Origin: a virus
Lineage: Duplodnaviria > Heunggongvirae > Uroviricota > Caudoviricetes
Direction: 5' to 3' (one strand)
IMG/VR virus record: IMGVR_UViG_3300013936_000013
Location: 77,246 to 141,245 of that record
Length of the DNA stretch: 64,000 nucleotides
Shown in pieces: positions 16,379 through 62,274 of the stretch; position 1 is the first letter of the stretch; each line of letters begins with the position of its first letter. Both the position numbers and the translations under genes were made by a program. A model generated the notes under the pieces. The model ran no database searches. It saw nothing but the letters and a program-made list of their open reading frames with translations, and was not told where the DNA came from.

Positions 16379-16380
16379 AA

Positions 16381-21704: not shown

Positions 21705-22643
21705 TTAGCTTCCTCCTTTGGTGCTATTCATACCATAAATATTGCTTTGATATAATTCAATCCACAATTTTTCTTTTTCATTTAACTAATCTCTTGGGCA
21801 TTCTTCAAGAACCTCAAAGGTAAAATTCCAAATACCATCTTGTTGCATTGAAGTATAAAGTTTGTTAGATGCTGAAGCCCCAATGCCGCAACCGCACTTA
21901 CAATGTTGTTTAAAACGTTCTCCAATAGAAACACTCTAACCAATGTAACACTGTTGCGTTTTTAAATTAGTAATTTTATAAATACCAGTTTTATCAGTTT
22001 TACCTACAATTCTAGTACTCATTTCAGATACTTTCTTTTGTAAGTATTCAGACCAAATAAGTTTATTTAAAACTGTAACATTCCTAAAGCTGCTTCTTAA
22101 ATTGAATAGTAAGTTAATATCATTTAATTCATTTTCGCTCAAGGTAATTTTATAGAAGTCAAGTTTCTTTTTCTTTTCTTCTTCTCTTAACTACGCTTCA
22201 ACGCCTGCGGCGAGTGATGCTCTAATCTTACTTAAATCTAATTCAGCTTGTTTCTTTTGGACTTGTAAATTCAAGATATATTTATCAAAATCAGATTCCT
22301 TTTTAGAATACTCATTATCAAGAGTCTCCATATAAAAATGTGCGGCATCCTCTGCTGTGCGCTTATAGTCTAAGGCTTTTTTCGCTTCAGCCTCAGCTTC
22401 TTTCTTCTAATTAGCTAAAACCGCATATTCATTGCCGAGACTATCTAATTCTACCGTTAAATCAAGAATTGAATCATGTAATCTCTATTCTTCTGAAGTG
22501 TCTAGCTCTTGTTTCTTTTTTAATTCTTCCTATAAAGAATTTATCTTATCACATTGCTAGTTATGCTAATAAACTAAATAAATAATAATTCCTGAAAGAA
22601 ATAATAAGCTAAATACAACGAGACAAATAATAAATACTTCCAT
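21705..22643 (-). CDS. free-standing GIY-YIG endonuclease fused in-frame to N-terminal TM/coiled-coil region; ~10 in-frame TAG
   Basis: GIYKITNLKTQQCYIG[TAG]SVSIGERFKQH and LNEKEKLWIELYQSNIYGMN motifs; ATG 22643 to TAA 21705 is open apart from TAG codons; region shows no long ORF under the standard code. Confidence 0.6.
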
Positions 22644-23242: not shown

Positions 23243-25225
23243 TTATAAATCAAATTGATTCATAAAATCTTCCTCAGATATAATCGGAATGTTAGCTGCC
23301 TTAGCCGCATTATTTTTAGCACTATTACTATTGATGTCATTATTGATAAGATAATTAACTTTCTTAGAAATAGAGCCTACGACTTTACCGCCATGAGATC
23401 CAATTTCATTAACTAAAGCATCTCTATTTTTATAATGCTTCAATTTACCAGTAATAACAAAAACCATATTTTTCATAGTGTCATTACTCTCTTGGTTATT
23501 CTCTGTCTTAAAAGAAAGATAATGAGCACATTTATCTGCTTCTGTAAAATCAAAAGCCTTAATATAGTTATGCATTTCCTCTCCAAAACCATCAAGAGTA
23601 AAGAAATGGTAAGTGTCATCTTCTACCGCGTCTCTAAAAGAAGCCCAATCGTTAAATTTTTTAGCTAGAATCTTAGCGACATTTGGACCAATTTCAGGAA
23701 TGCCAATAGCAGAGATAAATTGCCATAATTCACAATTTTTACTTGCTTCAATAGCATCAAGAATTTTAGTTACAGATTTCTCACCAAAACCCACTTTCTT
23801 TTTCCAGTCTGCGGCAAAGGTGTTAAGAGTATAAATATCTGAAGTTTTATTAATCCAACCCCAATCAATTAATTTCTCTAATGTAGCTTTTGAAAGACCT
23901 TTAATATCAAGTCCTTTCTTGCTACAATAATGGTCAATAATATTAATTAATTTACCTTGGCAATTAGGATTATCACAATAAAGCTGCTCTGTACCTGTAT
24001 CAGATATAATTACTCTAGTGGCTCCGCCGCAAATAGGACAAATAGAAGGAATCTCAATTTTTTCTCCATAAAATTCTTCTACAACGCCGCTGACCTGAGG
24101 AATAATCATGTTAGCTTTGAAAATAGAAATAGTGCAATCTTTCTCTTTAATGCCTAAAGCCTTCATAGTATTAATATTATGTAAACTAGCTCTTGATACT
24201 TCAGAGCCTTCAATATCTAGCGGGTCAAAGATTGCCACAGGAGTTAGAACACCAGTTCTACCCATCGTCCACTCAATATCTCTTAAAGTCGTTTCATAAG
24301 TTTCATCATAAAACTTATAAGCCAGACCTCCACGGAAGTGATGATTAGTCGCGCCAAGAGACTGATAATATTCACAATCATTATATTTAAAGACAATACC
24401 ATCAATAGGATAAGAAAGAAGCTGAGTATCTTTTTTTAAAGTATCAATAGTTTCCTTAATGGTCAGTTCATCTTTATTAGTGAAATATGGAACAGAAAAA
24501 AATCCTCTCGTTACCAACCAGTTTAATTTTTGAGAAAGAGTTTTAAAATTGCTAATTGAAGAGGTGATAATATCCCAAGCGACAAAAGTTAAATCACGAG
24601 TAACACATTCTTTAGAATCCAAAAGTCTAATACTACCTGCGGCGAAGTTTCGAGGATTCATATAACCATCAGCATCACGCGGATCAGCCTTTTTAAAACC
24701 TTCAAAGTCCTGATAGGTACAAATAATTTCACCATCAACAACTAAATCAATATCCATACCTAATCGCTTAGGAATAGAATCAATAACCATTGCATTATGA
24801 AGAATATTTTCTCCAATTTCTCCATTGCCGCGGGTCTCAGCTCCTACGAGTTTACCATGTTCATACTTCAAAGAGCAAGTAAGACCATCCATCTTTGCCA
24901 TAGCAATCCAAGGTTTATCTCCAATAAAAGATTCAACCGCATTAACGTCTTTAGTTTTATCCAAAGAAAGCATAGGATGATTATGTTTAACCTTTTCCAA
25001 TTTGCTTACTTTTGTAAAATGAATAATTTGAGTCGGAGAATCTTCACACCAGTAATGACAAGCATCTTCAGCTCGTTTAAGCCAAAAATACTTTTCATCC
25101 CATTCTGCATCAGTCATAATAGGATGACCTGCATCATATGCAGCAGTAGCATCATTAAGCTCTTTCGTTACTTTAATAATTTGTGCAATAGTATTTTCAA
25201 AATCATCTGCTTTTAATTCTATCAT
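23243..25225 (-). CDS. ligA: NAD-dependent DNA ligase
   Basis: Adenylation motif KMDGL, OB/Zn-finger/HhH and C-terminal BRCT-like region; 660 aa. Confidence 0.85.
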   Translation of the reverse strand: MIELKADDFENTIAQIIKVTKELNDATAAYDAGHPIMTDAEWDEKYFWLKRAEDACHYWCEDSPTQIIHFTKVSKLEKVKHNHPMLSLDKTKDVNAVESFIGDKPWIAMAKMDGLTCSLKYEHGKLVGAETRGNGEIGENILHNAMVIDSIPKRLGMDIDLVVDGEIICTYQDFEGFKKADPRDADGYMNPRNFAAGSIRLLDSKECVTRDLTFVAWDIITSSISNFKTLSQKLNWLVTRGFFSVPYFTNKDELTIKETIDTLKKDTQLLSYPIDGIVFKYNDCEYYQSLGATNHHFRGGLAYKFYDETYETTLRDIEWTMGRTGVLTPVAIFDPLDIEGSEVSRASLHNINTMKALGIKEKDCTISIFKANMIIPQVSGVVEEFYGEKIEIPSICPICGGATRVIISDTGTEQLYCDNPNCQGKLINIIDHYCSKKGLDIKGLSKATLEKLIDWGWINKTSDIYTLNTFAADWKKKVGFGEKSVTKILDAIEASKNCELWQFISAIGIPEIGPNVAKILAKKFNDWASFRDAVEDDTYHFFTLDGFGEEMHNYIKAFDFTEADKCAHYLSFKTENNQESNDTMKNMVFVITGKLKHYKNRDALVNEIGSHGGKVVGSISKKVNYLINNDINSNSAKNNAAKAANIPIISEEDFMNQFDL

Positions 25226-25257
25226 ACTATTTCTCCTATTATTTATTTTCTATAAAT

Positions 25258-25283
25258 AATTATACCATAATAAATAAAAAAAG
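25258..25283 (-). promoter_or_regulatory. conserved extended -10 promoter (TGGTATAAT variant)
   Basis: Plus aattataccataataaataaaaaaag. Confidence 0.5.
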
Positions 25284-25310
25284 TCAATATAGGATTATCC
25301 TATATTGACC
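25276..25310. terminator. terminator hairpin
   Basis: gtcaatataggat / atcctatattgac inverted repeat. Confidence 0.6.
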
Positions 25311-25316
25311 TGTTAA

Positions 25317-27686
25317 TTAAAGTTTTACAATATAATTAACTTCACTCTTAGTCATAATATTACCTAAGCTAGTTCTTACTAATTCAGGAATGTCAGTAGA
25401 AGAAATACAAATTGAATTAGGCTTACCAATCAATAGAATATTATCTTCCTTAGAAACCATTGCGGCTCCAACTAACTCTCCCGTAGAAGCAACTGCTTTA
25501 TAGCAAACTACGCCTTTTCCCGCACGACCCTGATATGGGAACTCACTTAATGCAGTTTTCTTTGCATAACCTTTTGAAGTAAAGAATGCGATATAATCAT
25601 TCTCATTATGGATTGGCAATCCAATCAAAACCTCATCATCGTCATCTAGTTTAATAGTTTTTACGCCTGCGGTGACTCTGCCAATAGGATTGATAGAAAC
25701 TGTGTCAAAATGGATACTCATACCTTTTCGAGTAATAACCACAATCTCTTCATCTTCAAGGAAAGTTACATTAGCAATAGAATCGCCATCGTTTAATTTA
25801 ATCGCCTGAATGCCAGTACTCTTCTTTACTTTCATATATTCAGAAAGCTCAGTTTTTTTTAATAGACCTTTCTTAGTAAAGAACACAACATACTTTGCTG
25901 TTGACTGACGATAAAGAGAAGTCATTGCAATAACTTTTTCATCATCATCCATAGTGATTAGAGAACTAATTCTTGAACCCTTAACTGTATTAGTTCCAAC
26001 AGGCACATTATCTACAAGCAGTCGATACATCTTACCCTTATTAGTAAAGAACATCAAAGTATCAACTGTATTCGTAGAAATGGTATCAAGAATTGCATCA
26101 TCCAAAGTTTTTACGCCCTTGCCATTTCGCTTTTGAACTTTAAAGCTCTTAGTAGGAACTCGCTTAATGTCTCCATTTTGAGTAAGCACAACAACAACGT
26201 CTTCAGGAGTTACTGTTGCAATCTCTTTCTCTTCAGGAGCAACATTAATTTGAGTAAGTTCTGTGCGACGAGCATCACCATATTTAGTCATTAATGCTGT
26301 TAATTTATTTTTAAGAACGATTTTTTGCTCATCTTCACTGTTAATTAAAACAGTCAAATTTTTAACAGATTCATCCAATTCAGCTTTTTCATTTTGTAGC
26401 TCAATTTTTTCCAAGCCAGCCAATTTACCAAGCTTCATATCAACAATAGCTTTAGCCTGATTAATAGTAAAACCATGGATTGAAGTTAAATTAGACACAG
26501 CATCCGCAGAACTCTTAGACTTTTTGATTAGAGCAATGATATTATCAATATCTTCAAGAGCTTTCAAAAGACCATCAACAATCTCTAATCGAGCTTTTGC
26601 TTTGTTAATATCAAATTCTGCTTCTCTCTTGATACACTCAAGATTATGTTTAATGTAAATCTTAATACAATCTACTAAGCCCAACTCAACAGGAGATTTA
26701 TCCACAAGAGCTACCTGATTGTAAGAAATTGAAGTCTGCAAATCAGTCTTTGCAAAAAGTTTTTTTACAACCGCATCAGGATTAGCATCCTTTTGGCATT
26801 CAATAACAATGCGGATTCCCTTTTTGTTACTTTCATCTCGAATCTCAGAAATACCTTCAACCTCTTTAGAGTCACAAACTTCTCCAATTTCAGTCATAAG
26901 GCCTTCAAGAGTCAACCCATAAGGAATCTCATAAAAGATAATTTTCTGCTTCTCAATGGTATATTTGCCACGAACTTTTACACTACCATGACCTGTTTTC
27001 ATAATTACGGGAATGTCATTTTTATTGATAATAATACCACCCGTAGGGAAATCAGGACCAGGTAAGACTGGTTCTTTTCCATCCATGTAATCAATAATTG
27101 CGGTTCCGACCTCGTTCAAATTGTGCGGGAGCCAGCTACAAGCCATCGCCACGCCGATACCTGTATTAGGATTACACAACAGATTAGGAAAGACAGAAGG
27201 CAAAGTTACAGGCTCTTCATCATTTTCGTCATAGTTAGGAATAAAATCAACAATCTTTTTCTTTAGACCATTGAGCATTCCATCTTCAGAAATCTTTGCC
27301 AATCTTGCATTAGTATAACGATAAGCTGCAGGTCCATCACCACCAATATTACCCATATTACCATGGAAATCAATCAGCGGATAACGCATTACCCAAGGCT
27401 GAGAAAGATGAACAAGAGCGCCATAAATTGAACTGTCACCATGCGGATGCCAATTGCCCATAACATCACCAACAATTTTTGCACATTTTGCGTACTCTTT
27501 ATTTGAAGCATAACCGCCGTCATAAGCGCCCCAAAGAATGCGGCGAGCGACAGGTTTAAGTCCGCTTCGAGCATCAGGTATACTTCTGTCCAAATTTACA
27601 GCTGCCGCATATTCAATAAAATTTTTACTTAATTCATATTGAAGGTCATTAATTTGATATTTATCTTTTAATTCAATATTATTCAA
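25317..27686 (-). CDS. type II DNA topoisomerase subunit A (GyrA/ParC-like; T4 gp52-like); TTG start
   Basis: ARSGLKPVARRILWGAYDG (GyrA N-terminal motif), 789 aa. Confidence 0.8.
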   Translation of the reverse strand: MNNIELKDKYQINDLQYELSKNFIEYAAAVNLDRSIPDARSGLKPVARRILWGAYDGGYASNKEYAKCAKIVGDVMGNWHPHGDSSIYGALVHLSQPWVMRYPLIDFHGNMGNIGGDGPAAYRYTNARLAKISEDGMLNGLKKKIVDFIPNYDENDEEPVTLPSVFPNLLCNPNTGIGVAMACSWLPHNLNEVGTAIIDYMDGKEPVLPGPDFPTGGIIINKNDIPVIMKTGHGSVKVRGKYTIEKQKIIFYEIPYGLTLEGLMTEIGEVCDSKEVEGISEIRDESNKKGIRIVIECQKDANPDAVVKKLFAKTDLQTSISYNQVALVDKSPVELGLVDCIKIYIKHNLECIKREAEFDINKAKARLEIVDGLLKALEDIDNIIALIKKSKSSADAVSNLTSIHGFTINQAKAIVDMKLGKLAGLEKIELQNEKAELDESVKNLTVLINSEDEQKIVLKNKLTALMTKYGDARRTELTQINVAPEEKEIATVTPEDVVVVLTQNGDIKRVPTKSFKVQKRNGKGVKTLDDAILDTISTNTVDTLMFFTNKGKMYRLLVDNVPVGTNTVKGSRISSLITMDDDEKVIAMTSLYRQSTAKYVVFFTKKGLLKKTELSEYMKVKKSTGIQAIKLNDGDSIANVTFLEDEEIVVITRKGMSIHFDTVSINPIGRVTAGVKTIKLDDDDEVLIGLPIHNENDYIAFFTSKGYAKKTALSEFPYQGRAGKGVVCYKAVASTGELVGAAMVSKEDNILLIGKPNSICISSTDIPELVRTSLGNIMTKSEVNYIVKL

Positions 27687-28578
27687 TTAAATATTCATCT
27701 CCTAACAACATTTCTAATGTAATCTAATCTCTTTCCCAATAAGGAATTCGTACTAATGGTATATTATTTTCTCTACAATATTGATTTTTAATTTTATCAT
27801 TCTTCTAAATAGATTCTAAATCATAGGTAAAAAAATTCTATTCTTTAAAATGTTGTATCCCATCAAATTCAATCAATCTAATTAATTTTTCCTTTTGATA
27901 AATACCAAAATCATATCTTAAAGGTTTAATATTTTTTAACTCTTTAAAAGTAACTTGCTTTTTATATTCAATATGATTAATTTTTAATATATTTTCAATA
28001 TTAATTTCACCAATAGAAGTTGATATGCATCCACAAGACTACACAGTTCCGTCTTTCAAATGAGAACTGGAAACTTCATGCTATTTTCCACAATCACATT
28101 GACAAACCCAATACATATGAGAACCATCTTTCATTGAGGTTGGATACATTGCAATTAATTTACCAAATCTTTGTCCTTTTAAATTTTCAAAAGTTTTATG
28201 ATAAGGACAATTCACTTTACCACAACTATTAACAGAACCTCCATTTAAATTATTTGAAGTTACTTCATGTTCATTTCCGCAATCACATTTACATTCCCAA
28301 ATAATACTTCTATGAAGTCGTTTTCCAGTATCTTTTATTACAGTTAAATGTCCAAATCGCCTTCCGACTAAACGAGTACTTAATTCAACTTCCTTCTTAG
28401 GAGGAATTAATTTTTTATCAATAATTACTTGATAATCTGGATTAGGCCAACTTCCTGTTTTAGTTACAATATATCCTTTATCTCGCATAGCTTTCTAAGT
28501 TCTACCAAAGCTAGTTTTTAAAGTAGAAAGACTATAACCATACTATTTACTAAATTCTTCTTTAGTCATATTAGTCAT
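27679..28578 (-). CDS. putative nuclease: tandem Cys-rich zinc-ribbon repeats + C-terminal PD-(D/E)XK (Vsr/DUF559-like) domain; 4 in-frame TAG
   Basis: Two repeats of W.C.CDCG.EHEV.S..L..G.V.SCG; C-terminus YDFGIYQKEKLIRLIEFDGIQHF...NIPLVRIPYWE resembles the Vsr-like endonuclease fold; GGAG RBS + ATG 28578; sits between topo II A and B genes. Confidence 0.5.
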
Positions 28579-29083: not shown

Positions 29084-30177
29084 CGTGTCACTCCTATGTT
29101 TCCATAGGCACTGACTAACTTTTACTCTCTTAGAGAGGAAACCATTTCGGTATTTCATTAGCTTCGTTTCCTAAAACTAAACTGCGTATCAATAGCAGCC
29201 CTACTTCCCTGCCCAGAAGACTTAGGGAATAGTCGATACAGGTTCAAATATTTATCCATTTCTTTTCTTTTTTCTTATAAATAGGAAGATTTTTATAACT
29301 TCTCCCCCAAAGCATTGCTTGAAATGCTTGATATGAAATTCTACTCTTATAGTCTTCATAGATTTGCCGAGCATTTTCATTTACATATCTTTGTCTAATG
29401 GCAATAACTTCTTCATTGGTGAAAACTGCCGAAGCTCCATTTTCGCCACAACTGTTTTGATAAATATAATATTTTTTATTTTCTTCTGTAAACACTTCTG
29501 GCATTATATGTGCCCAAGATTTTCCTTGCCACACAGCTTGAAAAGTTCCAAAAGAAACTATATCTTTATATTTCTCATAAACATCTTTTTGCTTCAAATG
29601 ATTGTTATATGCTTTTCTTATTTCAATAACATCTTGTTCTGTCAGTTTTGAACGTCCATTATTTTCACCAATGGATTGCTGATCTCCGCCTTCAGAGCAA
29701 TTATATCCTTTCTCAATAGAATTATAATATCGAATCCAATAAGATTCTCTTTCATTCAATTTTTCTATTGAACACTCTTCAATTACTTCATAAGTAAAAG
29801 CATCTTTTCCATACTTTTTTATTGCTACGTCAACAGGAATTCGACTAGACTCTCCTTTTGTCTAATGTTCTTTAAAACGACGCTCACAATCATTTGATTG
29901 CCCAATATAACATTTGCCATTTTCTTTTTTTGTAATTTTATAAATTCCTACCATTTTTATTCTCCTTCATTCTATAAAAATTTTATTTGAAAGAGAATGG
30001 ATAAATATTAGTTTCCCACGGGATTCCCATGCCTTTCAGTTTAGGGTTCCCCGTTAGCAAAATTCTTTTTCTCTTTCATATTTATGTGAGAACCGTATGG
30101 GTCACATAAATATGTCCTGTCCAAAAAAATTTTACCCGCTTGATCAAGCGTAAAGTTTTTCATACGCCGAATAGTTG
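29084..30177 (-). mobile_element. group I intron (1094 nt) in topo II subunit B gene, carrying GIY-YIG homing endonuclease ORF
   Basis: 5' exon ends ...GACGU, intron ends ...GACACG, exon 2 starts UGAUGGC; join gives DADVDG Toprim motif; P/Q elements (UGCUAACGGGGAACC...GGAAUCCCGUGGG) and R/S elements (CGACUAUUCC...AAAGUUAGUCAG); exon-1 frame hits TGA 45 nt into the intron. Confidence 0.75.
29244..29954 (-). CDS. GIY-YIG homing endonuclease with NUMOD-like repeats (intron-encoded); 1 in-frame TAG
   Basis: GGAGAAT RBS + ATG 29954; MVGIYKITKKENGKCYIGQSNDCERRFKEH[TAG]TKGE...; C-terminal repeats GENNGRSKLTEQDVIEIRKAY and GENGASAVFTNEEVIAIRQRY. Confidence 0.75.
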
Positions 30178-32267: not shown

Positions 32268-32296
32268 TATAATATATTATAACATAAAAAAATAAG
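32268..32296 (-). promoter_or_regulatory. conserved extended -10 promoter (TGTTATAATATATTATA)
   Basis: Motif copy; terminator hairpin aagagcaggttaa...ttaacctgctctt immediately upstream (32294..32324). Confidence 0.55.
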
Positions 32297-32328
32297 AGCA
32301 GGTTAATTATTTAACCTGCTCTTTATTA

Positions 32329-32691
32329 TTATTCTTCGTTATTTTTAATATAATCCTTAATTGCAATATTTTCATCCATTTGCTTTTGCATCCAATCCAA
32401 TGCAATCTTTACTAGATTATTAAACTGGTCAAAAGTCAAATAAGTAGCAACCCAAGGGAACTTAGTAATTGCTGCATTGTAAACTACACGAAGTTTTAGT
32501 TCACCAGTACCACCGCCAAGTGCTTTTTCAGCTTCAGCAACCTGACCTTTTAGCCACTCCTGTAAACCTTGAATTTGCTCATCTGTTGGCTTCTTTGCAA
32601 AATCTATAACTTTTAATACCACCAGAATAATAGCTCCAATGATAGCTACTAATGGTAGAAAGTTATGAACAATAAAATTAAGAATATCCAT
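32329..32691 (-). CDS. putative holin-like protein (N-terminal TM segment, 120 aa)
   Basis: Single hydrophobic N-terminal helix; start overlaps RBS at end of endolysin gene; assignment by context. Confidence 0.4.
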   Translation of the reverse strand: MDILNFIVHNFLPLVAIIGAIILVVLKVIDFAKKPTDEQIQGLQEWLKGQVAEAEKALGGGTGELKLRVVYNAAITKFPWVATYLTFDQFNNLVKIALDWMQKQMDENIAIKDYIKNNEE

Positions 32692-32705: not shown

Positions 32706-33353
32706 TTATAAAGTCAACCAAGTTTTTTCTCCAACAATGCCATCTGCGGTTAAACCGTGGTTCTTCTACCAAGCTATAACTGCGGCTTCAGTTGTAGCTC
32801 CAAATATACCATCTGGATTTTTAATACCTAAATGACGCTATAAAACAGTAACTGCATAGCTCGTAGTACCTCCATCCCGCATACCTTTTTTTAAAGTTGG
32901 CATTAGTTCTGGAGTTGAAATGTATGTAGTGCCTACCTTACTAATCCATCTACTCTTGTAGGTTCGTACATCAACATGAACAAAGCCCGCATAGATACCA
33001 GTGCTTCTATCATATAAACCAATACCGCCACGATTCTTAAAAAAAGGCAATGATTTAATATAAAGAGCAAGCTATAAAGGTTCTACTCCTTCAATTCTAA
33101 TATCTGCGGCGGTTCCTTTGCAATGCTAACTCTATGAACTACCACCAATACTCTTGTTATATGCTACTGTTCTATATGCACTATTGATTAAAATAGGCTT
33201 TTTATAATGGTCACGAATAGTCTAAAGAACTTGAACTAATTCATTATCAATTAAAATTTCATCCGCACCATTTTTACATCTAAATTCTTTTACTGTAAAA
33301 TTAATTGATAGCTTTAAATTTCCCTAAGTTTTATATGAATATTTACTTACCAC
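32706..33353 (-). CDS. endolysin: peptidase M15 + C-terminal peptidoglycan-binding domain; 8 in-frame TAG
   Basis: Zinc-site motifs S.HCKGTAADI and GGIGLYDRSTGIYAGFVHVDVR; C-terminal ...DGIFGATTEAAVIAW[TAG]KNHGLTADGIVGEKTWLTL matches PG_binding_1 with TAG at the conserved Gln; start codon uncertain (GTG 33353 or TTG 33383). Confidence 0.7.
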
Positions 33354-33591
33354 AAGGATCTCTTCTTTCTAATTCAGACTCAATGTTATTTAAAACATTG
33401 GTTAAAATATCCTTAAAAGATTTTAGTGGAAAAATAAAACGTAGCCAACTAGCATTTTGAGTTACTAGATTATAAACATATTGCAAATCAGTTGCATTGC
33501 TTTTGAGATAAAGCAACATTCCCTAAGTAACAATTTTCATTAGATGAATGTTACCATGAGAAAGTTCTTCAAGTAATACTTTTTCATCCAT
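33343..33591 (-). CDS. hypothetical small protein (82 aa); 1 in-frame TAG
   Basis: AAAAGGAGAG RBS + ATG 33591. Confidence 0.4.
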
Positions 33592-33689
33592 TTTTAAGTT
33601 CTCTCCTTTTGAAAATTGTATATAATAAAAGAGCTGTAATTAACTTACAACTCTTCAAAAACTATTTTATGATTATTTTATCGTTTCAA

Positions 33690-36596: not shown

Positions 36597-36664
36597 TATA
36601 TTATAATTATATCATATTTTATAAAAAAAATCAACGATGGATTTTTAACTATCCATCGTTGATT
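36597..36664 (-). promoter_or_regulatory. terminator hairpin + conserved TGATATAAT promoter cassette
   Basis: aatcaacgatgga...tccatcgttgatt hairpin then tatattataattatatcat motif. Confidence 0.55.
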
Positions 36665-36670
36665 TATTAT

Positions 36671-37906
36671 TTATGCCTTTTTCTTCTCCAAGAACTTGTT
36701 AGATACGTTCTTGAAACTAAAGCTACCATCATTAGGGTCTCGATAAACGATGCCTTCACGCAGAACAGCAGGATTTACAACAGACTTACCATCTGCCAGA
36801 GCCTTCATCTCTTCCATGGTATCAGGATTAACCCACTCAGTAGACAAGATAGGAACCCACTTCATATCCCAACTCTTCAAAATCTCTTGACCCTCAAGAG
36901 AGGAAATACGACCTACATCAGAACGAATGAAATTGAAACCGTAGAAATCATTTTCCTTCAACTTCAGCGGATTGCCCTGCACATTGCCAACAGACTCACC
37001 CTGTACGCAAACATACTTCAACTCAGGATTATCCTTCAGATACTGCTTCAAATGATTCTCAATATCATACTTAAATGCCATCTCCCAATAAATGTTATCA
37101 TCGTGATAGCACTCCTGCTCAGGAGTCAGCTGACGAACATTGCGGGAAAGCACATAAAACTCAAACTTATTGAAAGGCTTACGCTCCAGAATATAGGTAC
37201 TAGAAGTACCATCCAGCTTTTCACTAGCAATCAGCTTACGCTTATCCTTCAATACAAAAGGCATATTCTCAACGCGCTCTTCATCAGTCTTATGAATATA
37301 CTCAAAATGGGTCGGAAAATGAGTAGGAATCTTATCTCGCTTCTTACCGAAGAAAACAAACAGAATCTTACGACCCCAAGAAGTCTTCATCAGCTTACGG
37401 AAAATAGGCTTCTTAAACAGCTTAGCATTACGCTGCGCCATTGCCTTATACTTCTGATTTGGGTCTGCGGTAACATTAGCCTTTCGCGCATTATCTGCGG
37501 CATCAGCATAAGTTACACCCAAAATTTCGGTAACACCATCACCCAGATGCAGCTCAACACCCTTATCAGTCTTAATGGTAGGCTCGCCACCAACAGGAGT
37601 AACAACAGTCCAACCATCAAAATCCAGCGGATGCATCAGCAAACCCTGAGACAAAACCTTGCACATTCTCTGAGTCTTAATCTTATATTTCTTAGACTCA
37701 AGGAAAGAAAACTCTTCAGCTGCAGGAACCTGACTATCTACCTCAAAATAGATAGCAATATCGCCAACCTTAAACTGGTCTTTCTTTACAACACACCACC
37801 AACCATTAGTACGAGCATACTCAACTCGGTCATAATTAGGAATAGGCTTAATCTCATCAACAGTAACCAAATAAGCAAGCTCACGCTGACCATTCTTATT
37901 CAACAT
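36671..37906 (-). CDS. ATP-dependent RNA/DNA ligase-like nucleotidyltransferase
   Basis: Motif I KLDGTS within 411-aa ORF; family assignment tentative. Confidence 0.5.
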   Translation of the reverse strand: MLNKNGQRELAYLVTVDEIKPIPNYDRVEYARTNGWWCVVKKDQFKVGDIAIYFEVDSQVPAAEEFSFLESKKYKIKTQRMCKVLSQGLLMHPLDFDGWTVVTPVGGEPTIKTDKGVELHLGDGVTEILGVTYADAADNARKANVTADPNQKYKAMAQRNAKLFKKPIFRKLMKTSWGRKILFVFFGKKRDKIPTHFPTHFEYIHKTDEERVENMPFVLKDKRKLIASEKLDGTSSTYILERKPFNKFEFYVLSRNVRQLTPEQECYHDDNIYWEMAFKYDIENHLKQYLKDNPELKYVCVQGESVGNVQGNPLKLKENDFYGFNFIRSDVGRISSLEGQEILKSWDMKWVPILSTEWVNPDTMEEMKALADGKSVVNPAVLREGIVYRDPNDGSFSFKNVSNKFLEKKKA

Positions 37907-37924
37907 ATAGACATCCCTCCAAAG

Positions 37925-38278
37925 TTAAATCATAGAACTGTAATAAGTTTCTTCTTCGTACTCGCGACGTTCCTGCTCCTCGCGAGTCCCGCAGAACTCA
38001 TAAAGCATCCCCGCAGACTCAATAGTAACTTCATTACCGCCTGCGGTGTTGATATGAATGGTTTCTCCGACACAATAATCAAAAATCATTTCGACAGAAG
38101 CATCATCAAAGTAATTACAAAAAATATCATTTGCGGCTTCCCAGAAAAAATCAATGTAATTATCTCTATTGATGTTAATGCCGACTGCATCTAGCGCATT
38201 ATCAATCTCCAAATCCTGAGCCACACTCTTTTTAAGATTTTCAACAATCACAATAAAAATTTCTTTTGTCATTTTCAT
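37925..38278 (-). CDS. acidic hypothetical protein (117 aa)
   Basis: Intact ORF. Confidence 0.4.
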   Translation of the reverse strand: MKMTKEIFIVIVENLKKSVAQDLEIDNALDAVGININRDNYIDFFWEAANDIFCNYFDDASVEMIFDYCVGETIHINTAGGNEVTIESAGMLYEFCGTREEQERREYEEETYYSSMI

Positions 38279-38336
38279 TTCCCCTTTCTTTATATATATT
38301 ATATCATTTTTTTAATAAAAAATAAAGATACAATTT

Positions 38337-38528
38337 TTAAATTGAGTAAAAATGAAATTGTACCATAACTACCCAATAGAAAAAGGTTAAAAGTGAAGAA
38401 AAAATAATACCAATAGCATAACAAAAATCAGGTTCATTAGGATGATAACTTTTACAAAAATTAGTTGCTAATCTTCTAGTGATAAAACAAAAAACGCATC
38501 CAATGATAAAAATAATATAATTAAGCAT
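38337..38528 (-). CDS. small membrane protein (63 aa)
   Basis: Two hydrophobic segments. Confidence 0.35.
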   Translation of the reverse strand: MLNYIIFIIGCVFCFITRRLATNFCKSYHPNEPDFCYAIGIIFSSLLTFFYWVVMVQFHFYSI

Positions 38529-39191: not shown

Positions 39192-39369
39192 AATAAGCCT
39201 GAATCAAAGCAACAATAATATCTCCTACAATCTCATAAAGGATTTCCCATGCAATAGGAATAAAAATTAAATTCCAAGGTGCGTTAATAAAGCCAAGAAT
39301 TTTAAGATATGCCGCAATAAAAAACATACCTTCAAAAATTACATTCATGCACAAATCTCCTTTTTCCAA
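39157..39369 (-). CDS. small membrane protein (70 aa)
   Basis: Hydrophobic. Confidence 0.35.
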   Translation of the reverse strand: MEKGDLCMNVIFEGMFFIAAYLKILGFINAPWNLIFIPIAWEILYEIVGDIIVALIQAYYGEDGTDNSEQ

Positions 39370-39935
39370 TTACCGCCATAGCATTTACCATCACTAGACA
39401 TTTTTTTCTTAATTCTTTTTACAATAGTAGCATAATCATCAGAAACACCATATTTATTAATGACAAATGCAACCACTTCTTCCCAAGAGTCAAAAATAAT
39501 TTTATTACTACCATCTTTAGGAGAATACTTAATAATAAAAGGAAGAACACTCTTCTGCACTACTTTTACACGCGGCTTCCGAGTCTGGCGAACATCAATC
39601 ACTTGCTCGTAGTCTGCTTGAGCCCGCCGCATATTTTCTTCTTTAGTAACCCATTCAAGATTTTTAACAGAATTATCTCTTTTGTTGTGGTTCAGATGGT
39701 CAATAGTCATTTCTTTAGGGTTGTCACAAGGAATCCAAGTCAATGCTACAACACGATGAGCAAGCTGACCTTTAACTCGGCAATAACCATTACTTCCAAT
39801 TTTAATAGAAACAATTTTATTGTCTTTATTTTTGAAATGCCCTTGATTAGACACCCAAAGCTGAAATTCTTCATTCCAACGCCACCGCTCAATATTCAAA
39901 GTAAAACTCGGAAGCATAATTCCAAAAAGCATCAT
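39345..39935 (-). CDS. HNH endonuclease (HNH_3 type, homing-endonuclease-like)
   Basis: GQLAHRVVALTW...DHLNHNKRDNSVKNLEWVTKEEN. Confidence 0.7.
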   Translation of the reverse strand: MMLFGIMLPSFTLNIERWRWNEEFQLWVSNQGHFKNKDNKIVSIKIGSNGYCRVKGQLAHRVVALTWIPCDNPKEMTIDHLNHNKRDNSVKNLEWVTKEENMRRAQADYEQVIDVRQTRKPRVKVVQKSVLPFIIKYSPKDGSNKIIFDSWEEVVAFVINKYGVSDDYATIVKRIKKKMSSDGKCYGGNWKKEICA

Positions 39936-42680: not shown

Positions 42681-43421
42681 TCAGTTATCTCTGTTGCAGT
42701 TAATAGTTGAATCATAAAAATAAGTCACCATCCATGTGTCAAGATTTAAAAGTGCGGCAACCCCAGATTCAAAGCTCATTAAATCTATGTCTACTTTATG
42801 ATTGTCGCAATAATTATAAATTTGAAATTCTTTTTGCGTTTTTGGTACTGAACCAGTTAAATAAGGAACAGGTGTATGTCCATGAACAATATAGACATCA
42901 TCAAAGCCTGCGGGCCATGAGTCATCTACATGATCTCGATCCCAAAAAATTTTCCATGAATTTCTAAGTTCAGCCCACTCTTTACTCGTCCAATTCTGAT
43001 TAGGGGTGAAACCCGCATGACTTAAATAAATAAGTTGACCTTGTTTATTGCGATATGGAATAAGAGTATCCATATCAAAGATAAAGTCAAGAATTTCATC
43101 TTGACTTTTTTTCTTAAATTTAGTCCAAATTTCTGCGGTTTCTTTTCCACCATTTAGCAACCAATCGTTGATAAAAAGTTCTACAGTCTTTGGGTCTTCT
43201 TCATAACCGCCAACCGCGCCAAAAAGAATATCTTCGTGATTACCCAAAAGACAAGTTACTCTTGAATCATTCATCATTTCTTTAAGAATAGTTAATCCAT
43301 GTGGCTGGCGGTCAATAGCATCACCTAAGAAAAAGAGTTTATCTTCAGGTTTAAGAAATGCTTGAATTTGCTTCCAAAGAGAATAACAACCATGTAAATC
43401 AGAGCAGCAATAAACGCTCAT
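42681..43421 (-). CDS. Ser/Thr protein phosphatase-like metallophosphatase (lambda PPase/ApaH-like)
   Basis: DLHGCY, GDAIDRQPHG, GNHE, HGHT motifs; TGA stop. Confidence 0.65.
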   Translation of the reverse strand: MSVYCCSDLHGCYSLWKQIQAFLKPEDKLFFLGDAIDRQPHGLTILKEMMNDSRVTCLLGNHEDILFGAVGGYEEDPKTVELFINDWLLNGGKETAEIWTKFKKKSQDEILDFIFDMDTLIPYRNKQGQLIYLSHAGFTPNQNWTSKEWAELRNSWKIFWDRDHVDDSWPAGFDDVYIVHGHTPVPYLTGSVPKTQKEFQIYNYCDNHKVDIDLMSFESGVAALLNLDTWMVTYFYDSTINCNRDN

Positions 43422-45177: not shown

Positions 45178-46857
45178 ATGCCAACAAACAATGAAAATAT
45201 TGCGGTTCTTTGGTAGGGTAAAAGCTGGACAGTTCTTGACAAAATTTTAAAGCAAATGAATAATGATATTGCGGAGGTAGCAGCTCAAGTGAATACGGGT
45301 TTAAATGCTCTAGTTGCTTCTCAGTTTGCAGCAGCTAGAACTGGTAAAGTTTTTACAACTAAGTTTCCACGATATGAAATTTCAACAAGTCCAACTGGTA
45401 TTAAGATGGATGATAATGAAGGCATGGTATGCATCCCTTCAACTCCTACTTCTAAGAATACTAATGACTATGAAAGTGAACCAATGTTCCAGATTTTGGA
45501 ATGTAACTGGGAACTAGATAATGCGGGTAATATTAATATTACTGCAATTAAAGGTTTGAACAGTGAGTTCGCTCGTGATGGCTCAAATGGACAAGTAGGT
45601 ATTATTAATATGCCTTGGTATGTAAAGAGCTGGGAAGATGAAAATTACTGGTATATTTCAGTATCTGATACTCAATATTCTGGTTATCAACCTCTTGGTG
45701 AATGCATTAAACCAGATGGTAGTCTTCAGGGCTTTATGGTTCATGCTAAGTATGCTATGGTTGAGATTGAGGGTAAGCCATATAGCGCTTCTGGCCGTAG
45801 ACCATGCGCGGGAGGACAGCAACCTACTAATGTTTTTCATGTAGAAGGTGGAGACGATGTAACAGAGAAACCTACTATTGTAGCTCCATCTTATAGTGGA
45901 TTAATTAACTATTGTCATAAGCATAGTAATTTCTATTGTGCAGAAACTAGTAATGATGTTTTCTTTATGCAATTACAGTATATGATTAAATATGCAACTT
46001 TAAATTCACAGAGTGTATTGAATGGTTGTTTTAATTATAGCTATAATTATAAATGCACCGTTGCAGAAAAGAAAACTAGAGGTATTATTATTGCCACATC
46101 TAATGCTAATAATCTAGTAGTTGGTTCTACTTGCTCTATTGGTACAGTAAGTGGAGATAGATATTATGCCACTCAAAATGATATTCTATATAGCAGAAGA
46201 ATTAGTAAGATTGAGCAGTATGATGCTAGTAACTCTAAAGTTTGGTTTGAAACTGATTTGCCTGAAGGTTATAGTTTTGATACTGACACTACTTATTATT
46301 TAATTACAATGCCTTGGTATACTGGTAGTTGTGATAATGTTTTAGGTATGGATGGTTCTGCGGGTAATCCCACTAATGGTAAATATCCTGCTCTGATTGG
46401 TGGTATGGAATATTTTGTAGGTGGATTTGAAACCTTGGGCAATGTAGTAATGGACATTCAAGCAGAAGAAGGTTCTACTGTTCGTCGTGATTTCTATATT
46501 GCGCATGATGCTACTATTCTCACTACGGATATGACTATTGTTAAGTCTAAGTTTAAAAAGAGTAAATATACTCGACCTGGTTATGACTTCTGGATTGCTA
46601 AGCATGGTATTGATTTGGATAATGGAATGATGATTCCTACTTTAGGTGGCGCTTCTGACCATACCGGATTCTGTGATTATTCTTGGGCGGATTAGGCTAC
46701 TAGTGGACAGAGAGAAGCTCTATTCTTCGGGCGTCTGGGCTATGGCTCCTGGCGTGGTGCTTGGAGTCTGGATGCGGACGGTGGGCTCGGGCTCACCGGG
46801 TGGAATCTCCTCTCCCGTATAAGCCCGAATGGTATGTATGGAAATTTAAGCACTTAA
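45178..46857 (+). CDS. DGR target protein (559 aa) with C-terminal variable region; 2 in-frame TAG
   Basis: AAAGGAG RBS + ATG 45178; TAG at 45217 and 46693; VR lies in the last 55 codons; stop TAA 46855. Confidence 0.7.
46724..46816 (+). repeat. DGR variable repeat (VR)
   Basis: 93-bp match to TR with 16 mismatches, all at positions that are A in TR. Confidence 0.8.
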
Positions 46858-46875
46858 AACAATAGGAGGTAAGTT

Positions 46876-47229
46876 ATGGTAGAATTAAGATCTTGTGAAA
46901 AACAACCTGAATTCTAGTACTTTCCTCTCCCTGACACTGATTTAGCAGATGTAATTATTTGTCGCAATGAAAGAACTGAAGAGGTAGAAAATTCTAATGG
47001 ATTAGAGTCTAATGAAAAAAAGATTACAATAATGTATGTTTATGACTCTAATTCTTTTAGAACAACTTTGGACAAATCTGTTATAGAGGAAAACTTAGAT
47101 TTTTATATTAATTATGAAGAGACAAAACCAGATTATCCAAAAGAGATTGATGATTTGAAATCTCAATTAATGGATACTCAAATGGCTTTATGTTCTATTT
47201 ATGAAGCGATGGAGGCGCTAAGTTCATGA
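46876..47229 (+). CDS. avd: Avd-like DGR accessory protein (117 aa); 1 in-frame TAG
   Basis: AGGAGG RBS + ATG 46876; between VR and TR as in canonical DGRs; identity by position and size only. Confidence 0.45.
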
Positions 47230-47345
47230 TTATGGCAAAAATTTATTACAACTTAATCAAGAATGGTCTAAAAACCATCGATGATGTGCCCGAAAAATTG
47301 CGGGCAGAGGTCCAGAAGTTGCTGGACAAAGATAAGAAAAACTAA
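47226..47345 (+). CDS. hypothetical 39-aa protein
   Basis: ATGA overlap with avd-like gene; MIMAKIYYNLIKNGLKTIDDVPEKLRAEVQKLL. Confidence 0.3.
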   Translation: MIMAKIYYNLIKNGLKTIDDVPEKLRAEVQKLLDKDKKN

Positions 47346-47414
47346 TTTTAATAACAATACAAACTTTTGATTAAATAATAAATAGCAAAAAATAAGGTTT
47401 TATACTTCGAGAGG

Positions 47415-47507
47415 TCTTCGGGAATCTGAACAATGGCTCCTAGAGTGGTGCTTGGAATCTGAATGCGAACAATGGGCTCGGGAACACCAGGTGGAATATC
47501 CTCTCCC
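47415..47507 (+). repeat. DGR template repeat (TR)
   Basis: A-rich copy of VR; in target frame encodes many AAY codons (AAT AAC AAT ... AAC AAT). Confidence 0.8.
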
Positions 47508-47511
47508 TTTT

Positions 47512-47578
47512 CTCTTTTGAGTTTAGAATATCAAAAGAGTACTGGCGGCTATAAGCCGCCAGTATATTTTTGTTTTTT
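47512..47578 (+). terminator. two hairpins immediately 3' of TR, second GC-rich with T-run
   Basis: ctcttttga...tcaaaagag and tactggcgg...ccgccagta followed by tatttttgtttttt. Confidence 0.5.
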
Positions 47579-47777
47579 ATATGTAGCTTTAGATATTCTT
47601 TTAAAGTATAAAACACCCTAAAAAGGTCTTTGCTTAGAGTATTTTACTCGAAATTTGCAATGATTAATCTAGTTCCATTGGAGGACTAGTTATAATGAGG
47701 TCAGTAAATTATTATCTATTAGAAAGGATGATGATTAAAAGCGTTGTTAATTAATCAAAAGAGAAAGAAGGCTAGCA

Positions 47778-48980
47778 ATGGCAGTTCACTCTTACTGCAA
47801 GAATAAAGACATTTCAGATGTCAAGTTTATTTATTATTGTGCAAAAGATTGTTTACATGATAAATGGCGTCGTGATGACGTAGTAAGATTTTTAAACGAA
47901 TATAACCCATTGTTCACTAGAAGACAGATTCTCGAACAAATTAATAAGGATAAATCTGTATTTGACTCAACTTTAATGAGAGTCGCAGAAGAACTTAGTA
48001 ATGAAATAAAAACAAAAACAGTCCACTTTAGACCGATTCGTTATAAAGAAAAATATGATGCTAATTCCAAAAAATTAAGGATTATAGGCATCCAATCTGT
48101 TAAGTAGCAAATATATGATTATGTTGCGGTTAAAGGTGCCCAAGAAATGTGGGATTGCAAAATTGGTTATTACCAGTGCGCATCACTGCCAGGCCGCGGT
48201 CAAGTATATGGTAAAAGCATGATTGAAAAATGGATACGTTCTCCAAAAACAAGAGACAAATGTATTTATGTTGTTAAAGGAGATATTAAAAAATGCTATC
48301 CTTCAGTATCTATTCCAATCATTAAAAAACTATTGAAAAAAGATATTAAAAATGATGATTTACTATATCTAATATTTACTTTAATAGATTCTTTTGATAG
48401 AGGACTATCAATAGGTTCCTATCTTAGTTAGTATCTCTGTAATTATTATCTTTCTTATGCTTATAGCTATATGGATAATGAATTAAGAAGATATTATTCT
48501 TTTAAATTATTTTATATGGATGACTTCATTATGATTGGCGAAAATAAAGAATAGCTTGTTAAAGCTATGCAGAAATTCATTTCTTATATAAAAGAAAAAT
48601 TAGATTTGACAGTAAAACCAAACTGGGAAGTCTTTCCTATTGATTATATAGATAGCCACAAGAAACGGCATGGTAGACCCATAGATATGATGGGCTATGT
48701 TATTTATCGAGACCACACAACAGTTAGAGCTTGTATTTTTCTATCAATTAGACGTTCTTATTTGCGTGCGGCTAAGCGATATGTTGATGTTAGACCTAGA
48801 AAAAGGATACCTGTGGAAGCTGCCCATAGATGCGTTTCTTATTTTGGATGGCTAAAGAATTCAAGCTCAGGAACTTTTATATTTAATTATAATGTAAAAG
48901 TAATTTTTTCCTTAGCTAAATGGTCGGTTTCTAAATTTAATAGAGACAAAAATCAATGTTCTGAAAAGCGAGGTACATAA
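47778..48980 (+). CDS. DGR reverse transcriptase; 3 in-frame TAG
   Basis: ORFs 47778..48107, 48147..48431 and 48567..48980 share one frame and are joined by TAGs; motifs RIIGIQ, YVVKGDIKKCYPSV, LSIGSYLS[TAG] (DGR GxxxSQ hallmark) and YMDDFIMIG. Confidence 0.8.
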
Positions 48981-48981
48981 T

Positions 48982-57856: not shown

Positions 57857-57965
57857 AATCCTTTTACCTCCTTTATTATTCTATTAAAAATTAAAATATT
57901 ATTTTTATGATTTCCGCCCAAAAAGAAAAGAGGTTGAGATAAACCCAACCTCTAAAGAATAAATC

Positions 57966-59501: not shown

Positions 59502-59542
59502 GCGGTTATTATCATAACCTTTTTAATTAGGCGTTTTTATTC

Positions 59543-62268: not shown

Positions 62269-62274
62269 ATATAT

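Follow-up and report, generated by a model that had tools for sequence, protein, structure and literature searches.

The endolysin gene at positions 32706..33353 (minus strand) of the DNA analysed here, a 64,000-nucleotide stretch of the IMG/VR virus record IMGVR_UViG_3300013936_000013 (hereafter the window), is placed inside a block of replication genes, adjoining PhoH, and contains a series of in-frame TAG codons. This raises the question of why TAG is found in some genes of this phage and not in others, and whether it has a part in timing lysis. A sequence-only reading of the window had claimed that TAG is concentrated in lysis, structural and nuclease genes and nearly absent from core replication genes, and that this fits the proposal, made for other stop-recoded phages, that the availability of a suppressor gates the translation of lysis and late functions.

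To judge from its sequence, the phage reads TAG as glutamine (genetic code 15). Pfam domain matches run across TAGs in the endolysin, GIY-YIG and RT genes, and the ATP-cone of NrdD, RNase H and RecJ each have one in-frame TAG that is flanked on either side by homologous sequence. An ORF of 2192 codons contains 12 TAG, and no TAA or TGA. Genes in the window end in TAA (52) or TGA (16), never in TAG. Under table 11 ThyX seems to stop at a TAG, but a 98% ortholog has Gln at this position; the gene is therefore counted with one sense TAG, at codon 212 of 223, where the earlier count had been zero. TAG is found near ortholog ends in 1 of 461 cases in recoded relatives, as against 30 of 293 in non-recoded ones. 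All four TAG sites that are changed in close orthologs have become CAA or CAG. Summed over 25 TAG columns, BLOSUM scores are best for Q (41, compared to 19 for K and 16 for E), and the TAG at endolysin residue 205/206 aligns with a conserved Q of PG_binding_1 in all four PDB matches.

The predicted decoder is an amber-suppressor tRNA(CUA) at 62420..62519 (minus strand), identified from its Rfam tRNA score of 55.5 bits, its cloverleaf fold and its alignment with neighbouring tRNAs. Immediately downstream are tRNA-Gln(UUG) and tRNA-Gln(CUG) (62195..62346, minus strand). The anticodon loop is CU-CUA-AA, whose anticodon ARAGORN misreads as 'taaa'; the acceptor stem is Gln-like, with pairs U1-A72, G2-C71 and G3-C70, and the extra arm is about 28 nt long. 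A type II suppressor, with a long extra arm and TAG translated as Ser, Leu or Tyr, was considered and rejected, as the alignment columns and codon swaps favour Gln. Copies that are identical or 98% identical are found in loci L177, L183 and L119, and exact matches to its anticodon arm led back to this tRNA in no relatives but the closest, and turned up in many unrelated phages as well. No gene for a release factor or an aminoacyl-tRNA synthetase was seen in the window. The suppressor tRNA sits in a TAG-free block (tRNA array, YqeY-like and Ro/TROVE-like genes) behind sigma-70-type promoters (63211-63239 and 62689-62717) that belong to the extended -10 class described below. The block is closed by a strong terminator (57929..57953, minus strand), beyond which lie the first TAG-containing structural genes.

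TAG codons were counted in 69 genes (19,131 codons, with TAA and TGA as sole stops), obtained by curating automatic code-15 ORF calls by hand. Curation removed spurious N-terminal TAGs in DnaB, orf126 and the second metallophosphatase (42681..43421), and dropped the ORF 36659..38368+, which is antisense. The 67 in-frame TAGs that remain are not uniformly distributed: the G-test value lies above all 100,000 multinomial simulations (p<1e-5), the four nulls being codons, Gln codons, position-specific T1*A2*G3 composition and out-of-frame TAG counts. The replication and nucleotide class has 6 TAG in 8,279 codons and the structural, lysis and homing endonuclease class 52 in 5,465 (Fisher p = 3e-15). 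After GC has been taken into account the class effect persists (Poisson likelihood ratio p = 3e-10, rate ratio ~10), so that the per-gene density does not become uniform, the outcome that the sequence-only reading had named as telling against its claim. The pattern across gene classes is thus real and statistically strong. GC has an independent effect in the same model, lower gene GC going with higher TAG density (Spearman rho = -0.48), and CAA is favoured over CAG in the TAG-rich genes too.

The direction of the effect is clearer when counts are set against a rough neutral model, in which TAG is expected to make up about 0.44 of Gln codons. Replication genes have a TAG share of 0.024, about 20-fold lower. 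Structural genes, at 0.19, are also under the neutral value, as are late genes in general (0.19-0.29). Set against this rough value late genes are therefore not enriched, and the solid signal is the exclusion of TAG from early genes. Only the endolysin (7/8 or 8/9, depending on the start codon) exceeds it, with p = 0.007-0.015, uncorrected, among 69 genes; compared to the 19% in structural genes, p = 1.4e-5. No 5' bias in TAG positions was found (KS p = 0.35). The TAG data do not establish a selected lock on lysis.

Among the replication genes, the DNA polymerase III alpha (6589..10551, minus strand; PHP, DNA_pol3_alpha, finger and HHH_6 domains) has no TAG in 1320 codons, 44 of them Gln. It is related to YorL of SPbeta, at 40%. 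TAG is likewise absent from the primase (phrog_47) and DnaB-like helicase (15293..17925, minus strand), the NAD-dependent DNA ligase LigA and GyrA (23243..27686, minus strand), both parts of GyrB, PhoH, NrdG and dUTPase. NrdD, RecJ (in its N-terminal part) and RNase H have one TAG each despite belonging to this class. Except for ThyX, these are the values originally given.

The endolysin call itself, an error in which had also been named as undermining the proposal, is well supported. Pfam identifies a Peptidase_M15_3 domain (residues 28-127, E = 1.7e-20) followed by PG_binding_1 (residues 187-222, E = 3e-10), both matches covering TAG positions; PDB alignments agree, and the motif aligned to the 1lbu carboxypeptidase is present. 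From the GTG start, which follows a purine-rich run resembling a ribosome binding site, the gene has 215 codons, and its Gln codons are 7 TAG, one CAA and no CAG, the first TAG being codon 10. The eight TAGs originally counted for about 215 codons are reached only from an alternative TTG start at 33383 (225 codons), with the eighth at 33371. Orthologs with about 90% nucleotide identity keep 7 of 8 TAGs.

Just upstream, and overlapping the endolysin, is an ORF of 82 residues (33343..33591, minus strand) with a strong RBS and one TAG. It has 95% orthologs in L081, L082, L085 and L086, and no PHROG match. Directly downstream is a holin-like candidate of 120 residues (32329..32691, minus strand; phrog_6918 holin, E = 2.5e-5), with one N-terminal transmembrane segment (residues 11-29), no Pfam match and no TAG; its family has 3 TAG in 70 Gln codons in the recoded relatives. 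Between PhoH and this cassette lies a terminator-like hairpin with a weak T tail (33628..33656, minus strand), with no TGNTATAAT promoter after it. The cassette ends in a terminator with a 13-bp stem (32294-32323), after which comes the TGTTATAAT promoter of RNase H (32275-32284); together they occupy 32275..32323 (minus strand).

The nuclease genes are a mixed group. A RuvC-like Holliday-junction resolvase (1068..1577, minus strand; PHROGs 159 and 827), which follows a terminator, has TAG at 3 of its 5 Gln codons, the number of TAGs noted earlier. Another gene (21705..22643, minus strand), preceded by a hairpin and then a T run, encodes a 312-residue protein that has a transmembrane segment near its N-terminus, a GIY-YIG domain at its C-terminal end and, in addition, a coiled coil. 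The gene has TAG at 8 of 20 Gln codons, rather than the approximately 10 first reported, and its ortholog in the closest relative, L086, has 11, with TAG/CAA and TAG/CAG swaps. The free-standing homing-endonuclease-like ORF between GyrB-C and GyrA (27679..28578, minus strand; PHROGs 559, 374 and 9084) has TAG at 7 of 14 Gln codons. It is not present in L086, and a 64% ortholog in the non-recoded L094 has no TAG, which suggests that the TAGs arise in place. It is thus the free-standing ORFs that are TAG-rich, as had been claimed for homing endonucleases in general. The claim does not extend to the intron-like GIY-YIG ORFs within the insertions that split RecJ (13742..14464, minus strand) and GyrB (29244..29954, minus strand), with one TAG each, nor to an HNH_3 endonuclease (39345..39935, minus strand), which has its own TGATATAAT promoter, no TAG, and is a counter-example. 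Rfam found no group I intron in the RecJ and GyrB insertions, and the ORF at 29244..29954 is missing from the closest relative, whose GyrB is intact.

The presumed virion genes at 50215..57856 (minus strand) comprise the giant 2192-residue ORF and two small ORFs upstream of it, with 1 and 2 TAG. The giant ORF matches only PHROGs of unknown function and has no Pfam match, so the label 'structural' is a presumptive one. A diversity-generating retroelement (DGR), consisting of orf559, VR, TR, RT and orf176, is found at 45178..49512 (plus strand). Its target is the tail-like orf559 (2 TAG), which has the variable repeat (VR, 46724-46816) at its C-terminus; the giant ORF, also considered as target, was rejected for this reason. 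The template repeat (TR) is at 47415-47507, and all 16 mismatches between TR and VR fall at TR adenines. The RT (47778..48980, plus strand; RVT_1 in Pfam) and orf176 have 3 TAG each. For the RT and the giant ORF the recount agrees with the original figures.

The motif TGNTATAATW occurs 21 times in the window compared to 4.8 expected. Fifteen genes have a host-type extended -10 promoter (TGNTATAAT; TGnTATAAT) directly in front of them; these contain 3 TAG in 4,891 codons, and the remaining genes 64 in 14,240, although gene by gene the association between promoter and TAG presence is not significant (p = 0.12). The polymerase has a TGTTATAAT promoter at 10579-10588. By contrast, the endolysin cassette, the 312-residue GIY-YIG gene, the RuvC-like gene and the structural block each begin right after a hairpin terminator, without a TGNTATAAT promoter. 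One gene runs against this split: orf559 has a TGGTATAAT promoter 128 nt upstream.

The same distribution recurs in the IMG/VR relatives, which include 41 recoded loci. The relatives come from human-gut and rumen samples, and the closest have genomes of 134-137 kb. Gene order is conserved in the clade, which includes recoded as well as standard-code members. The polymerase has 2 TAG in 1,721 Gln codons (37 recoded relatives) and is lower in TAG than the rest of its locus in 56 of 57 paired loci. Counts for the helicase, primase and DnaB are 0/466, 1/396 and 4/508, so that TAG makes up no more than 0.8% of Gln codons in replisome genes. In lysins the figure is about 25%, with a within-locus median of 0.28 compared to 0.064 for the rest of the locus (paired, p = 4e-5); representatives of this family are peptidoglycan hydrolases according to Pfam. 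The RuvC-like gene, which is syntenic and vertically inherited, is the most TAG-biased conserved family, with 152 TAG in 260 Gln codons (~55%; within-locus paired Wilcoxon p = 9e-9). Shared ancestry makes the relatives non-independent, so that the Wilcoxon p-values err on the optimistic side. PHROG annotation of the most TAG-biased clusters is mostly uninformative, and two of these clusters were rejected as antisense artefacts. The division between replication and late genes is imperfect: the RuvC-like gene is TAG-rich, as are RecJ and dUTPase in relatives.

On the basis of these observations, we propose that TAG is probably kept from early genes and tolerated in late or dispensable ones, with a translational delay as the result. 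The source would be a Firmicutes-type phage of about 135 kb, using code 15 and its own tRNA(CUA). Purifying selection would clear TAG from genes that need the unmodified host translation machinery, namely the replisome, topoisomerase, ligase and most others directly behind host sigma-A-type extended -10 promoters. Later-acting or dispensable products (the tail/DGR block, M15 endolysin, RuvC-like resolvase and free-standing nuclease ORFs) would tolerate it, their genes lying behind terminators and lacking such promoters. Synthesis of full-length endolysin would be blocked by its seven TAGs, from codon 10 onwards, until the suppressor tRNA outcompetes host RF1. Three elements of this are inferred: early expression of the genes with these promoters, an increase in suppressor activity as infection proceeds, and an influence of the delay on when lysis occurs. 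The suppressor gating originally suggested is partly supported: it gains from the tRNA, the promoter and terminator layout and the recurrence in recoded relatives, and loses from the TAG-free holin-like gene, the lack of 5' bias and the position of late genes below the neutral value.

A more tentative suggestion, and one that we doubt, is that amber recoding serves less as a lysis clock than to hold back, as a general safety catch, enzymes whose early synthesis would be dangerous. This would fit the order of TAG content, with the RuvC-like family above the lysins and the free-standing nuclease ORFs next, and the holin-like gene and intron-borne GIY-YIG ORFs remaining TAG-poor. The catch would be layered on terminator-insulated units and served by an unusual tRNA-Gln(CUA) with its 28-nt extra arm.

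It is also possible, though in our view unlikely, that the distribution has no regulatory role. Where selection is weak, as on selfish nucleases, accessory genes and fast-evolving tail and lysis genes, CAG-to-TAG transitions would drift passively to an AT-biased equilibrium, and constrained or highly expressed core genes would purge TAG because suppression is inefficient. The pattern would then mirror constraint and expression level, not timing. The independent effect of GC, the preference for CAA, the late-gene fractions below neutral, the lack of 5' bias and the TAG-free non-recoded ortholog of 27679..28578 are all as such drift would have them, but the class effect that persists after GC correction is not, and neither are the 12 TAGs of a long and presumably abundant structural ORF. 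Drift also fits poorly with TAG-free status following one promoter class and TAG-rich genes following terminator-insulated positions, and with values at or above equilibrium for the endolysin and, across the clade, for RuvC.

It is improbable that the TAG-rich islands in the replication block (the endolysin cassette, the homing endonuclease at 27679..28578 and the 312-residue GIY-YIG gene) are recent imports from more recoded phages that have kept the codon usage of the donor. The islands are AT-rich, two nuclease ORFs are missing from the closest relative as described above, and PhoH-adjacent lysins differ in domain architecture across the clade. Nevertheless, the PhoH-lysin synteny is kept in 40 loci, the endolysin is about as similar to its closest relatives (93% amino acid identity) as are LigA (94%) and PhoH (95%), and the most TAG-rich family, RuvC-like, is not imported but inherited. 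Finally, it is hardly credible that the TAG-containing ORFs are pseudogenes or miscalled genes of a standard-code phage: they do fragment under table 11, and several N-terminal TAGs were indeed spurious extensions, but domain matches cross the TAGs, a suppressor tRNA gene is present, TAG terminates no gene in the window and is rare near ortholog ends in recoded relatives, and TAG sites are conserved in orthologs or swapped with CAA/CAG.

The pattern has precedents. The pattern appears to match that of the recoded gut phages of Borges et al. [quoted passage not shown] Common to both are TAG in structural and lysis genes, standard-code replication machinery, a phage suppressor tRNA, a lysin among the most TAG-biased genes, and recoding that is patchy among close relatives. 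Jade phages have a 'code change module' ahead of their recoded lysis cassette; much like it, the standard-code block with the suppressor tRNA lies in the window immediately upstream of recoded genes. The window differs in its lineage (as indicated by the distant polymerase match and the lack of a near match in INPHARED), in having the lysis gene by PhoH and not with the structural genes, in its TAG-free holin-like gene, and in that neither a release factor nor a synthetase gene was seen in it. Agate phages have a strongly recoded intron endonuclease (Borges et al.), whereas here the intron-like ORFs are TAG-poor and the free-standing ones TAG-rich. The RuvC-like resolvase, the most TAG-biased family here, goes unmentioned in the text of Borges et al.

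The proposed 'Phassvirus' (phAss-1) is a group of TAG-recoded human-gut phages of ~133-138 kb, with TAG as Gln, tRNA-Sup(CTA) genes, many tRNAs, and about 28% of ORFs interrupted by TAG, lysis genes included (Babkin et al. 2023, PMC10607447). Genome size (that of the closest IMG/VR relatives), decoding and suppressor tRNA are similar; however, a megablast search of cultured and deposited phages (INPHARED) with 25 kb of the window gave no match, and the best polymerase matches are SPbeta-like, at 40%. Peters et al. (2022, PMC9523058) used metaproteomics to validate the reading of TAG as Gln in code-15 crAss-like phages, where it is mostly late genes that contain such codons. To judge from its sequence, the window resembles these in both respects, but they have Bacteroidota hosts, another replication module and an unrelated genome architecture.

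The window would thus add an independent Firmicutes-type lineage in which early genes are written in the host code and later genes in a private one. The current picture is unchanged, because the phenomenon and the proposed mechanism have already been published. With its conserved gene order and its members of both codes, the clade is a good natural comparison set for asking if selection favours TAG in lysis and nuclease genes or simply tolerates it. It is worth adding that calling genes in the standard code would fragment the endolysin, tail genes, RT and resolvase, and that the suppressor tRNA escapes ARAGORN.

The window is rich in AT, with a GC fraction of about 0.34, and the minus strand carries most of its genes. 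When only TAA and TGA are taken as stops, fragmented ORFs join into long ones, such as those of 2192 codons (12 in-frame TAG), 312 codons (a GIY-YIG gene, 8 TAG), 299 codons (7 TAG) and 225 codons (the endolysin, 32706..33383, 8 TAG). Searches of Pfam and PHROGs identified a Pol III alpha polymerase, DnaB, primase, an SF1 helicase, an AAA_24 protein, GyrA, NAD-dependent ligase, a split GyrB and a split RecJ, NrdD, NrdG, dUTPase, PhoH, RNA ligase, a DGR reverse transcriptase, a RuvC-like resolvase and several ORFs resembling homing endonucleases. YorL of SPbeta shares 40% identity with the polymerase. Megablast against deposited phages found no close relative of the window; many relatives are present in IMG/VR, and two contigs of 134 and 137 kb are the nearest of them.

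The phage is indeed recoded, and alignments show that TAG is read as glutamine. TAG terminates no gene in the window, and across 25 alignment columns containing TAG the best-fitting residue is Gln. In orthologs 90–94% identical, all TAG differences from the window are swaps with CAA or CAG (endolysin codon 86; GIY-YIG codons 231, 246 and 299). In alignments with four solved structures, the TAG at endolysin residue 205/206 falls on the conserved PG_binding_1 Q, and the apparent TAG stop of ThyX lines up with Gln in a 98% ortholog.

ARAGORN listed no CUA tRNA in the window; its 'tRNA-??? (taaa)' at 62420..62518 actually bears the anticodon loop CU-CUA-AA. This amber-suppressor tRNA (62420–62519, -) folds as a cloverleaf, scores 55.5 bits with the Rfam tRNA model, and adjoins tRNA-Gln(UUG) and tRNA-Gln(CUG). 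Its acceptor stem (U1-A72, G2-C71, G3-C70) resembles that of E. coli tRNA-Gln. The extra arm is nonetheless long, at about 28 nt with a 6-bp stem and 7-nt loop; elsewhere in phages, Sup-CTA tRNAs sharing this anticodon arm are mostly 72–77 nt, a few 87–94 nt. Identical or 98% copies occur in only three IMG/VR contigs (L119, L177 and L183).

The distribution of TAG was analysed in 69 curated genes (19,131 codons), in which glutamine is encoded by 67 in-frame TAG, 324 CAA and 262 CAG. The sequence-only reading had proposed that TAG is concentrated in lysis, late-structural and homing-endonuclease genes, and TAG is indeed far from uniform. Four null models took the expected counts from codons, from Gln codons, from positional base composition or from out-of-frame TAG, and in none of them did any of 100,000 simulations reach the per-gene G statistic. 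Replication and nucleotide genes contain 6 TAG in 8,279 codons, against 52 in 5,465 for structural, lysis and homing-endonuclease genes (Fisher's test, p = 3e-15). TAG density falls with gene GC, and in a Poisson model a class effect of roughly 10-fold persists after GC correction (p = 3e-10), so density is not uniform even then.

A rough neutral estimate, using first-position C/T usage in the leucine codons TTG and CTG as a stand-in for TAG versus CAG, with the observed CAA/CAG ratio as a second arm, predicts about 44% TAG among Gln codons. The observed fractions are 0.024 in replication genes, 0.19 in structural genes, 0.29 in homing endonucleases and about 0.88 in the endolysin. The endolysin excess reaches p = 0.007–0.015, uncorrected for 69 genes, and what is firm is therefore that early genes strongly exclude TAG; in the endolysin, TAG may have been positively selected as a lock on lysis.

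The earlier TAG counts were correct overall, with three exceptions. The 8 given for the endolysin, whose identity is borne out by its Peptidase_M15_3 and PG_binding_1 domains (Pfam), are reached only from the longer TTG start, there being 7 within 32706–33353; the 312-codon GIY-YIG gene has 8 rather than about 10; and ThyX has 1 rather than 0, since its table-11 TAG stop aligns with Gln. The description of homing endonucleases as TAG-rich holds for two free-standing nuclease ORFs and fails for the GIY-YIG ORFs inserted in RecJ and GyrB (1 each) and for a promoter-bearing HNH gene (0). The 312-aa gene itself (21705–22643, -) falls outside the classic homing endonucleases: its product combines an N-terminal transmembrane segment with a long coiled coil, and the GIY-YIG domain (residues 219–301) is C-terminal. 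The holin-like gene beside the endolysin (32329..32691, -) has no TAG and is TAG-poor throughout the clade. TAG positions show no 5' clustering within window genes.

RuvC-like, RecJ and dUTPase are exceptions to a simple replication/late split. The single TAG of NrdD (3562–5841, -) is codon 27 and falls within the N-terminal ATP-cone; read with table 11, the ORF begins again from an ATG 78 codons into the gene. The single TAG of ThyX (21032–21703, -) lies 12 codons before the end. Both could give largely intact enzymes without suppression, which may be why TAG is tolerated in these nucleotide-metabolism genes.

The window has 21 copies of the extended -10 motif TGNTATAATW (4.8 expected), chiefly in minus-strand intergenic regions, often with a TTGAC-type -35 box and right behind a terminator hairpin. 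A motif no more than 150 nt upstream was used as a proxy for expression class. The 15 promoter-proximal genes so defined contain 3 TAG in 4,891 codons and the remaining genes 64 in 14,240 (Fisher p = 8e-6); tested gene by gene over the 69 genes, promoter presence was not significantly associated with TAG presence (p = 0.12). TAG-rich genes lack the motif, the sole exception being orf559 (motif at 128 nt). Five units start directly after a hairpin terminator: the lysis cassette (orf82b, endolysin and holin-like gene), the 312-aa GIY-YIG gene, the RuvC-like gene (1068..1577, -), orf158, and the structural block from orf151. Between many TAG-free genes there is a recurrent unit consisting of a long hairpin terminator, a TTGAC-type -35 in its 3' side or tail, and then TGNTATAAT (for example 25258–25311, 32275–32323 and 36605–36665, all -), which suggests many short transcription units, each with its own promoter.

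The suppressor tRNA block is TAG-free, with early-type promoters upstream and a strong terminator (57929–57953) at its end, immediately past which the TAG-containing structural genes begin. It comprises the tRNA array and, between the array and the structural genes, three genes (57966–60489, -) of GC 0.38–0.45, above the rest of the window: a YqeY/GatB-like protein (PF09424), a 166-aa ORF (orf166), and a Ro/TROVE-like RNA-binding protein (DUF2828 + DUF7788, phrog_850). Gln-tRNA in many Firmicutes is made by transamidation via GatCAB, and therefore the GatB-tail-like protein adjoining the suppressor tRNA-Gln might relate to its charging.

The anatomy of the window fits a mechanism based on suppressor-tRNA timing, which we consider most likely. 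Host RNA polymerase and the host standard code would express the TAG-free genes and the tRNA array, and accumulating suppressor tRNA-Gln(CUA) would then make TAG-containing messages translatable; without suppression, endolysin translation would end at codon 10. These messages seem also to require terminator read-through or an unrecognised late promoter. The same mechanism was put forward by Borges et al. (bioRxiv 10.1101/2021.08.26.457843).

Loci around polymerase and PhoH were collected from IMG/VR, 94 first and then 80 additional PhoH-centred ones. The clade is a mixture of recoded and apparently standard-code members; TAG directly follows ortholog ends in 30/293 cases in non-recoded loci versus 1/461 in recoded loci. 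Of the first 94 loci 41 are recoded, and in these TAG accounts for 2 of 1,721 Gln codons in polymerase, 0 of 466 in SF1 helicase, 1 of 396 in primase and 4 of 508 in DnaB, for 152 of 260 in the RuvC-like resolvase, and for 31% in dUTPase, 21% in RecJ and 18–25% in homing endonucleases. In paired within-locus tests, whose p-values are optimistic because shared ancestry is ignored, replisome genes fall below the rest of the locus nearly everywhere. In the enlarged set a peptidoglycan-hydrolase gene lies directly 3' of PhoH in 40 loci, and thus the placement of the endolysin among the replication genes is conserved in the clade. The domains of these lysins vary (Phage_lysozyme2, Amidase_2, M15, Glucosaminidase, SH3); their median TAG fraction is 0.28, versus 0.064 for the rest of their own locus (Wilcoxon, an optimistic p = 4e-5). 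Relatives of similar polymerase identity include both recoded and standard-code loci, intermingled with each other (L001–L094 and L197–L268); at about 71% identity, for instance, the TAG count over about 4,600 aligned codons is 0 for some loci and 17 for others. The clade therefore seems to have gained or lost recoding repeatedly.

Much of this has precedent. Borges et al. (bioRxiv 10.1101/2021.08.26.457843) described standard-code replication genes with recoded structural and lysis genes, one lysin and one intron endonuclease preferentially recoded, a standard-code code-change module upstream of recoded genes, and recoding that is patchy from one relative to the next. In crAss-like phages, proteomics supports code 15 (PMC9523058). 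The literature also includes TAG-recoded gut phages of about 135 kb (PMC10607447), but they are not close to the window (megablast of 25 kb of the window; its polymerase best matches are SPbeta-like). The lineage is new, the phenomenon known. Less familiar are the TAG-free holin-like gene against the TAG-rich lysin, the correlation of TAG with promoters and terminators, the long extra arm of the suppressor tRNA, and a RuvC-like resolvase as the most TAG-biased family, which is absent from the text of Borges et al.

The DGR is complete (45178–48980, +; RT 47778–48980). TR (47415–47507) and VR (46724–46816) differ at 16 positions, 16/16 at TR adenines. VR forms the C-terminus of the 559-aa tail-like protein orf559, the DGR target, which rules out the giant 2192-aa ORF in that role.

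RecJ (12420–15292, -) and GyrB (28684–31685, -) are each interrupted by a 1.0–1.1 kb insertion with a GIY-YIG ORF. Long invariant blocks run through their non-coding flanks, which are homologous between the insertions, suggesting that these are related self-splicing introns; an Rfam search found no group I intron in either. In the closest relative, L086, GyrB is intact at 635 aa.
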